From: Escherichia coli
GTDB lineage: Bacteria; Pseudomonadota; Gammaproteobacteria; Enterobacterales; Enterobacteriaceae
Direction: 5' to 3' (one strand)
NCBI RefSeq assembly: GCF_048403405.1
Contig: NZ_CP183129.1
Length of the DNA: 64,000 nt
The position numbers were made by a program, and so were the translations under genes. The notes under the pieces are model-generated. The model was not told the origin of the DNA and made no database searches. It saw nothing but the letters and a program-made list of their open reading frames with translations. Shown piece after piece: positions 11,543 to 11,587 of the stretch. Positions within the stretch are counted from its first letter, which is position 1. Each line of letters starts with the position of its first letter.

Positions 11543-11587
11543 CGTCATTATGCGTCAGATTTATGACAGATTTATGAAAAGCTCGTC
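11543..11587 (-). promoter_or_regulatory. Pho boxes in the phoB promoter (PhoB autoregulation)
   Basis: Minus strand reads TTTTCATAAATCTGTCATAAATCTGACGCATAATGACGTC, tandem CTGTCAT-type direct repeats upstream of phoB. Confidence 0.8.

Follow-up and report, generated by a model that had tools for sequence, protein, structure and literature searches.

The Pho boxes found upstream of phoB and phoA in the analysed stretch of Escherichia coli DNA (64,000 nucleotides, hereafter the window) almost certainly belong to the native promoters through which PhoB controls the phoBR and phoA-psiF operons. At both promoters we found two tandem 11-bp repeats on the strand of the gene that they precede, a 10-bp spacer leading to a -10 hexamer, and no -35 element, i.e., the features by which a Pho-box promoter is recognized. 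The sequence, geometry, statistical significance, conservation and gene identities of the two sites were observed directly and are presented below, together with a third PhoB site inside phoB, a natural polymorphism in the phoA box, and the question of whether the closeness of the two operons carries any meaning. The occurrence of Pho boxes in these normal positions is already known and is ordinary textbook biology.

In order to place the promoters in their genomic setting, we resolved the window against complete E. coli genomes. It is a piece of E. coli chromosome in reverse orientation relative to K-12 MG1655 and corresponds roughly to 364–428 kb of K-12, as extrapolated from the K-12 stretch at 400.5–419.5 kb. 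Positions 7680–64000 are colinear with strain 4621 (NZ_CP103479.1) at 99.995% identity, the sole structural difference being an IS200C element in the proY/brnQ gap (window ~7680), which is present in 4621 and absent from the window. The region around phoB and phoA was matched in 5,424 of 5,426 complete E. coli genomes; the best matches over the whole region were to strains such as MS 69-1, PCN033, and 4621. Genes were called by transferring the annotation of the colinear strain 4621 and checking it by NCBIfam equivalogs, and the scores for PhoB, PhoR, PhoA, PsiF, and IraP all exceeded the respective cut-offs (Table 1). As expected for a PhoBR two-component system, phoB and phoR are both equivalog matches, lie co-oriented on the - strand and are separated by a gap of 57 bp. 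Immediately downstream of phoA lies psiF and immediately upstream lies iraP, and the gene order is the same as in K-12.

Table 1 Coordinates of genes, promoter elements, and weight-matrix matches in the window.
Feature	Position	Strand	Description
phoR	9457-10752	-	Pho regulon sensor histidine kinase, second gene of phoBR; NF008235, 890 bits (cut-off 390)
phoB	10810-11499	-	OmpR-family response regulator/transcription factor; NF007546, 540 bits (cut-off 471)
sbcD	starts 11689	+	Divergent from phoB
psiF	24932-25252	-	Phosphate-starvation-inducible; strain 4621 annotation, NF008560
phoA	25371-26786	-	Alkaline phosphatase, GTG start; NF007810, 896 bits (cut-off 540)
iraP	26887-27147	-	Anti-adaptor stabilising RpoS in phosphate starvation; NF007598
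phoB activating Pho box	11559-11580	-	Two 11-bp direct repeats; best weight-matrix score, 21.1 bits
phoB -10 hexamer CATAAT	11547-11552	-	10-bp spacer after the CTGTCAT core of the Pho box
PhoB auto-repression site	11541-11559	+ (antisense to phoB)	GACGTCATTATGCGTCAGA; matches Gao & Stock 2018 (PMC6194859)
Intragenic PhoB site	11380-11397	+ (antisense to phoB)	ATTCACAGCACTGTCATA; third weight-matrix match, 16.0 bits
phoA Pho box	26845-26866	-	Two 11-bp repeats; second-best weight-matrix score, 20.7 bits
phoA -10 hexamer TATAGT	26833-26838	-	10 bp downstream of the Pho box
Intrinsic-terminator hairpin	25336-25365	-	Immediately 3′ of the phoA stop codon; a U-run comes next
Weight-matrix match 1	11562-11579	-	21.07 bits; phoB promoter
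Weight-matrix match 2	26848-26865	-	20.71 bits; phoA promoter
Weight-matrix match 3	11380-11397	+	16.01 bits; within phoB
Weight-matrix match 4	59129-59146	-	15.08 bits; within lacZ

Some further features of the window were recorded alongside. An ORF of 485 amino acids (2666-4123, - strand) between acpH and malZ, annotated as “hypothetical protein”, was found at this place in ~1,126 of the 5,426 complete E. coli genomes (O157:H7 among them) and is presumably missing from K-12. It had no Pfam match above cut-off (Cas_CT1975 came closest, scoring 17.5 bits where 26 are required), and PADLOC returned 0 matches for it. A second ORF of 67 amino acids (27329-27532, - strand), located between iraP and ddlA and called “hypothetical protein” in strain 4621, had no match in Pfam. 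The mhpR gene (56983-57816, + strand) is an intact ORF of 277 amino acids in the window and is flagged as a pseudogene with an internal stop in strain 4621. A scan of the whole window at Rfam gathering thresholds gave 0 matches.

The PhoB sites were ranked using a weight matrix constructed from the 59 sites that Fitzgerald et al. 2023 (PMC10294691) list in their Table 1, minus the three local ones, which left 56, and the full 64 kb was scanned on both strands against a null of 300 dinucleotide-preserving shuffles. The initial annotation, which was made from the sequence alone, had reported a recognizable Pho box before each of the two operons and had proposed such a scan; once run, it placed the phoB and phoA boxes first and second (Table 1). 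From the shuffles, one can expect 0.007 matches per window at ≥20 bits, 0.18 at ≥16 bits, and 0.42 at ≥15 bits, with a mean maximum score of 14.6 bits. The stretch of K-12 equivalent to the window contains only three PhoB ChIP-seq peaks, at 401676 (phoA), 417093 (sbcD/phoB), and 417245 (inside phoB) (PMC10294691), and these are exactly the three best weight-matrix matches. A search with the consensus CTGTCATAWAWCTGTCAY, allowing up to three mismatches, gave four matches in the window against 0.16 expected, and three of the four were the phoB and phoA promoter sites. Several other candidates were rejected: the lacZ match (15.1 bits, where 0.42 are expected) and ~10 further matches at 12–13 bits do not rise above chance and have no counterpart in the K-12 ChIP list, and a site in lacI (58492-58509, + strand), matching the consensus with three mismatches, is likewise at chance level and is not a K-12 ChIP-seq peak. 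Taken singly, CTGTCAT and CTGTCAC heptamers are close to their chance frequency, with 14 copies across the window; the information lies only in the tandem arrangement and not in single heptamers. As a quality control, the scan shows the window to be an intact and ordinary piece of E. coli chromosome, in which a plain PhoB matrix suffices to recover the three K-12 ChIP-seq sites.

At the phoB promoter, positions 11543-11587 read GACGAGCTTTTCATAAATCTGTCATAAATCTGACGCATAATGACG on the - strand. The activating box is composed of a first repeat TTTTCATAAAT (11570-11580) and a second repeat CTGTCATAAAT (11559-11569), and it holds a single perfect CTGTCAT (11563-11569). TTTTCAT stands before this heptamer, and a degenerate CTGACGC and then TGACG come after it in the same 11-bp register. 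A sigma-70 promoter scan detected no -35/-10 pair at the phoB promoter and none at the phoA promoter, which was as expected, because promoters of this type have a Pho box in place of a -35 element.

The interval that the initial annotation had assigned to the phoB box holds more than the box, since it also includes the -10 hexamer and a PhoB auto-repression site. In the latter, two CGTCA tracts (11543-11547 and 11553-11557) with a 5-bp spacer straddle the -10 hexamer, and the site as a whole (GACGTCATTATGCGTCAGA) is the same as in K-12, equals the published wild-type sequence and fits the mutagenic primers used by Gao & Stock (PMC6194859), whose rp2 mutant primer leaves CATAAT untouched. The site was reported to be of low affinity (KD 4.9 µM) and to turn a purely positive phoBR autoregulation into a coupled positive and negative loop (Gao & Stock 2018, PMC6194859); PhoB binding at the K-12 phoB promoter was also seen by EMSA (PMC6194859). 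A 41-bp module combines the box with the -10 hexamer and the repression site, and it is exactly preserved in 5,414 of the 5,426 complete E. coli genomes.

Conservation beyond E. coli was assessed by seeking the exact 18-mer TTTCATAAATCTGTCATA in one genome per species (GTDB-based collection), which yielded at least 120 loci. Among the 120 loci listed, the phoB start codon lies 65–219 nt downstream in 91, and four more end inside an evident phoB, so that at least 95 are upstream of phoB; the listed loci span ~30 genera of Enterobacterales as well as Alkalimonas. Outside the part that the search itself selects for, conservation begins 1 nt ahead of the 18-mer and lasts until position 34, delimiting a 35-bp block TTTTCATAAATCTGTCATAAAWCTGACGCATAATG on both sides of which it drops to background (84 distinct sequences). 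Within 55 distinct Enterobacterales phoB promoters, CATAAT is retained in 47 and the upstream TGACG tract in 51, while the other half of the repression site, formed by the downstream TGACG tract, is retained in only 10. Because so few promoters keep the downstream tract, the two-part repression site in its complete form may be confined to Escherichia and some of its relatives. The upstream tract is part of the spacer that leads from the box to the -10 hexamer, so its conservation cannot be assigned to any one function, repression included.

The phoA promoter reads AGCTGTCATAAAGCTGTCACG on the - strand at 26848-26868, and its box consists of a first repeat CTGTCATAAAG (26856-26866) and a second repeat CTGTCACGGCC (26845-26855), whose heptamers CTGTCAT and CTGTCAC stand in the 11-bp register and make up the sole TGTCAY-N5-TGTCAY of the window. 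As in K-12, the second repeat is followed by GGCC and not by the A/T-rich tract of the Pho-box motif. Conservation of the phoA site across species is taken from the literature (PMC10294691). Relative to K-12, the box differs by one base, which changes TTGTCAC to CTGTCAC in the second repeat (window 26855, C for T on the - strand) and brings the box closer to consensus (20.7 bits compared with 19.7 bits for the K-12 allele, +1.0 bit). Since the change is toward consensus, a loss of box function is unlikely. The two alleles were counted using 35-nt queries centred on the variable base, where a mismatch leaves no exact 28-base seed for megablast. Using this approach, the C of the window was found in ~591 and the T of K-12 in 4,763 of the 5,426 complete E. 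coli genomes (~11% for the window allele), and one or the other allele in 5,354. By these counts the C allele is a minority natural polymorphism, and a variant that moves the phoA box toward consensus in ~11% of sequenced E. coli could be of specialist interest.

Downstream of phoA, the terminator-like hairpin has a 13-pair stem with 9 G-C pairs (-28.1 kcal/mol, z-score -5.5) and probably acts as a partial terminator on transcripts heading from phoA into psiF. Such a reading fits RNA-seq data from K-12, in which psiF RNA is ~10-fold below phoA RNA (PMC10294691). On the other side of the gene, the iraP stop codon and the phoA Pho box are only 20 bp apart (26867-26886). We found no terminator-like site on the - strand in this gap, and because it is so short and holds no such site, iraP transcripts may read into phoA and thus add to its basal, PhoB-independent expression.

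The third weight-matrix match lies inside phoB and was missed in the initial annotation. The site is exactly phoB codons 35–40, TAT GAC AGT GCT GTG AAT (YDSAVN), extends over 22 bp (11379-11400) in its two-half-site form, and is identical to the K-12 ChIP-seq site at 417245 (PMC10294691). Fitzgerald et al. found it conserved in about half of their species and did not decide between function and codon constraint as the cause (PMC10294691). We examined synonymous codon use in 69 Enterobacterales phoB genes with <93% nucleotide identity to the window, where retention is defined as the frequency of the window's codon among genes that keep the amino acid, and where the controls are the other phoB columns with the same codon. 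Retention was 0.91 for TAT at Y35 (controls 0.35, 0.72, and 0.77; rank 1 of 4), 0.91 for GAC at D36 (controls 0.87, 0.39, 0.44, and 0.26; rank 1 of 5), and 0.79 for GTG at V39 (twelve controls, range 0.07–0.78; rank 1 of 13). These three codons face the TGTCA cores, and changing them costs the site 6.8 bits at Y35, 3.5 bits at D36, and 1.2–6.3 bits at V39; the product of their ranks is 1/260. The positions facing the spacer or uninformative bases drift, with retentions of 0.47 (S37), 0.15 (A38), and 0.44 (N40), and the core-minus-spacer contrast ranks first among the 98 six-codon windows of phoB. A column-swap null for the weight matrix gave p = 3.4 × 10−4, which we discounted, since ascertainment of the site took place in E. 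coli, whose relatives share codons by descent; the same-codon controls that replaced it give a weaker result. The choice between AGY and TCN at Ser codon 37 was uninformative, as the control AGY columns are 100% retained.

Probably, the intragenic site is transcriptionally inert noise, its conservation being a by-product of the YDSAVN peptide and of ordinary codon bias. This agrees with Fitzgerald et al. (PMC10294691), for whom most intragenic sites had no associated regulation and who raised codon constraint themselves. The + strand carries no -10-like hexamer after the site, and sbcD RNA is unaltered in a phoB deletion strain. Equally strong synonymous retention (0.9–1.0) is seen elsewhere in phoB, at codons 3, 9–11, 24, 111–112, and 127–129, where we found no PhoB motif to account for it, and the margins over the best controls are slim (0.91 vs 0.87 and 0.79 vs 0.78). 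What speaks against inertness is the pattern itself: Y35, D36, and V39 are each the most retained among phoB columns with the same codon, whereas the spacer-facing codons vary freely, and no other six-codon window of phoB shows as strong a contrast between core and spacer. There is perhaps some room, then, for the site being a selectively maintained operator in phoB autoregulation, e.g., a weak roadblock or an additional sink for PhoB~P when its level is high, although we regard this as the clearly less probable of the two readings. Two more specific roles were rejected. An antisense promoter driven by the site would need a -10-like hexamer, and the bases 10 bp downstream on the + strand are TTCGAC, with sbcD RNA unchanged; looping to the promoter box, or a fixed helical phase with it, is improbable because the distance from box to phoB start varies among species (65–85 nt, up to 219 nt). 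The synonymous conservation is thus a suggestive hint that goes slightly beyond the literature, and is neither proof nor a finding. If true, a constraint at the DNA level on this site would bear on the debate over functional intragenic transcription-factor sites.

PhoB dependence of the two operons is well documented in K-12. RNA-seq of the wild type against a phoB deletion gave log2 values of 7.6 for phoA (a ~200-fold drop in the deletion), 6.8 for phoR, and 5.4 for psiF, making phoA-psiF a PhoB-dependent operon, with only 1.2 for iraP, while sbcD was the same with or without phoB (PMC10294691). The phosphate-starvation induction of iraP was attributed to a ppGpp-dependent promoter of its own and not to PhoB (PMC10957080). 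In the region upstream of iraP (27148-27330) no weight-matrix match exceeds 9 bits, and K-12 has no PhoB ChIP peak there (PMC10294691). Given its ppGpp promoter and the lack of an upstream match, iraP is phosphate-starvation responsive but is not a Pho-box gene, and it falls outside the Pho regulon. The initial annotation was thus right that psiF and iraP are adjacent to phoA and that both respond to phosphate starvation, but iraP does so via ppGpp and without a Pho box.

The start codons of phoB and phoA are 15,287 bp apart, which upholds the earlier observation that both operons lie within 16 kb. Whether this amounts to a concentration of the Pho regulon is a different matter. Among nine K-12 PhoB-activated promoters with upstream binding, the smallest gap is that between phoA and phoB (15,417 bp), and the chance of a gap that small is 0.13, 0.22, or 0.36 for 7, 9, or 12 points placed at random on a 4.64-Mb circle. 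The clustering is therefore not beyond chance (P ~0.2). That the closeness of phoBR to phoA-psiF (with iraP) should be a selected regulon cluster, for instance one sharing local PhoB or a chromosomal domain, seems very improbable to us. The separation of 15.3 kb is common to the strain of the window and K-12, and iraP, a third phosphate-starvation gene, abuts phoA; yet random placement yields such closeness with a probability of 0.13–0.36 for 7 to 12 operons, ~14 unrelated genes lie in between (including sbcDC, araJ, mak, rdgC, aroLM, proC, and adrA), the remaining PhoB operons are scattered over the chromosome, and iraP is under a different regulator. The notion that the motif matches themselves are chance A/T-rich heptamer repeats with no regulatory meaning can be set aside with near certainty, for although single CTGTCAT/CTGTCAC heptamers and the weak lacZ and lacI matches do occur at chance level, both promoter sites score >20 bits (0.007 expected per window), stand in the correct place and orientation, match, exactly or nearly so, K-12 sites at which PhoB binding has been demonstrated by experiment, and are conserved across an order of bacteria.

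With the two sites taken as native PhoB-dependent promoters, the following course of events would be expected. Upon phosphate limitation, PhoR would phosphorylate PhoB, and PhoB~P would bind the Pho box as a head-to-tail dimer, using the two 11-bp direct repeats with a TGTCA-type core in each. Ending 10 bp upstream of the -10 hexamer, the box would stand in for the -35 element, and PhoB~P would recruit sigma-70 RNA polymerase to it. At phoB this would result in positive autoregulation, and at high levels of PhoB~P the weaker, opposite-facing site over the -10 hexamer (11541-11559) would also be filled, damping the phoB promoter. The phoA box would drive phoA, with about one tenth of the transcripts passing the hairpin into psiF, while iraP would sense the same starvation via ppGpp at its own promoter.

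The closest known system is K-12 itself, for which Makino et al. 1986 reportedly described the phoB promoter (phoBp) with its activating Pho box. The 189-bp intergenic region between sbcD and phoB is 100% identical in the window, so that the Pho box, CATAAT, and the two antisense CGTCA tracts with their 5-bp spacer are all shared; the start of phoB, intragenic site included, is also identical except for one synonymous difference at codon 12 (GCA vs GCT), in a comparison that took in the first 37 codons. The K-12 phoA box is CTGTCATAAAGTTGTCAC, located at the ChIP peak at 401676 (PMC10294691), and the window shares its position and orientation, the 10-bp spacer, TATAGT, the 5′ UTR, the GTG start, and the iraP and psiF flanks. 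The initial annotation's view of an expected, native arrangement whose motifs are intact is thus well founded, given the K-12 gene order, an identical phoB region, and a phoA box that is one base off. From this identity (phoB) or near-identity (phoA) to sites established experimentally in K-12, we infer that PhoB would bind and regulate both promoters. A further comparison is offered by the pstS promoter, which lies elsewhere on the chromosome, outside the window, and carries the strongest K-12 PhoB site (TGTCATAAAACTGTCATA). It is of the same motif class and shares the mechanism, in that its box takes over from the -35 element, and its score on the same matrix is 23.3 bits vs 21.1 bits for phoB and 20.7 bits for phoA.
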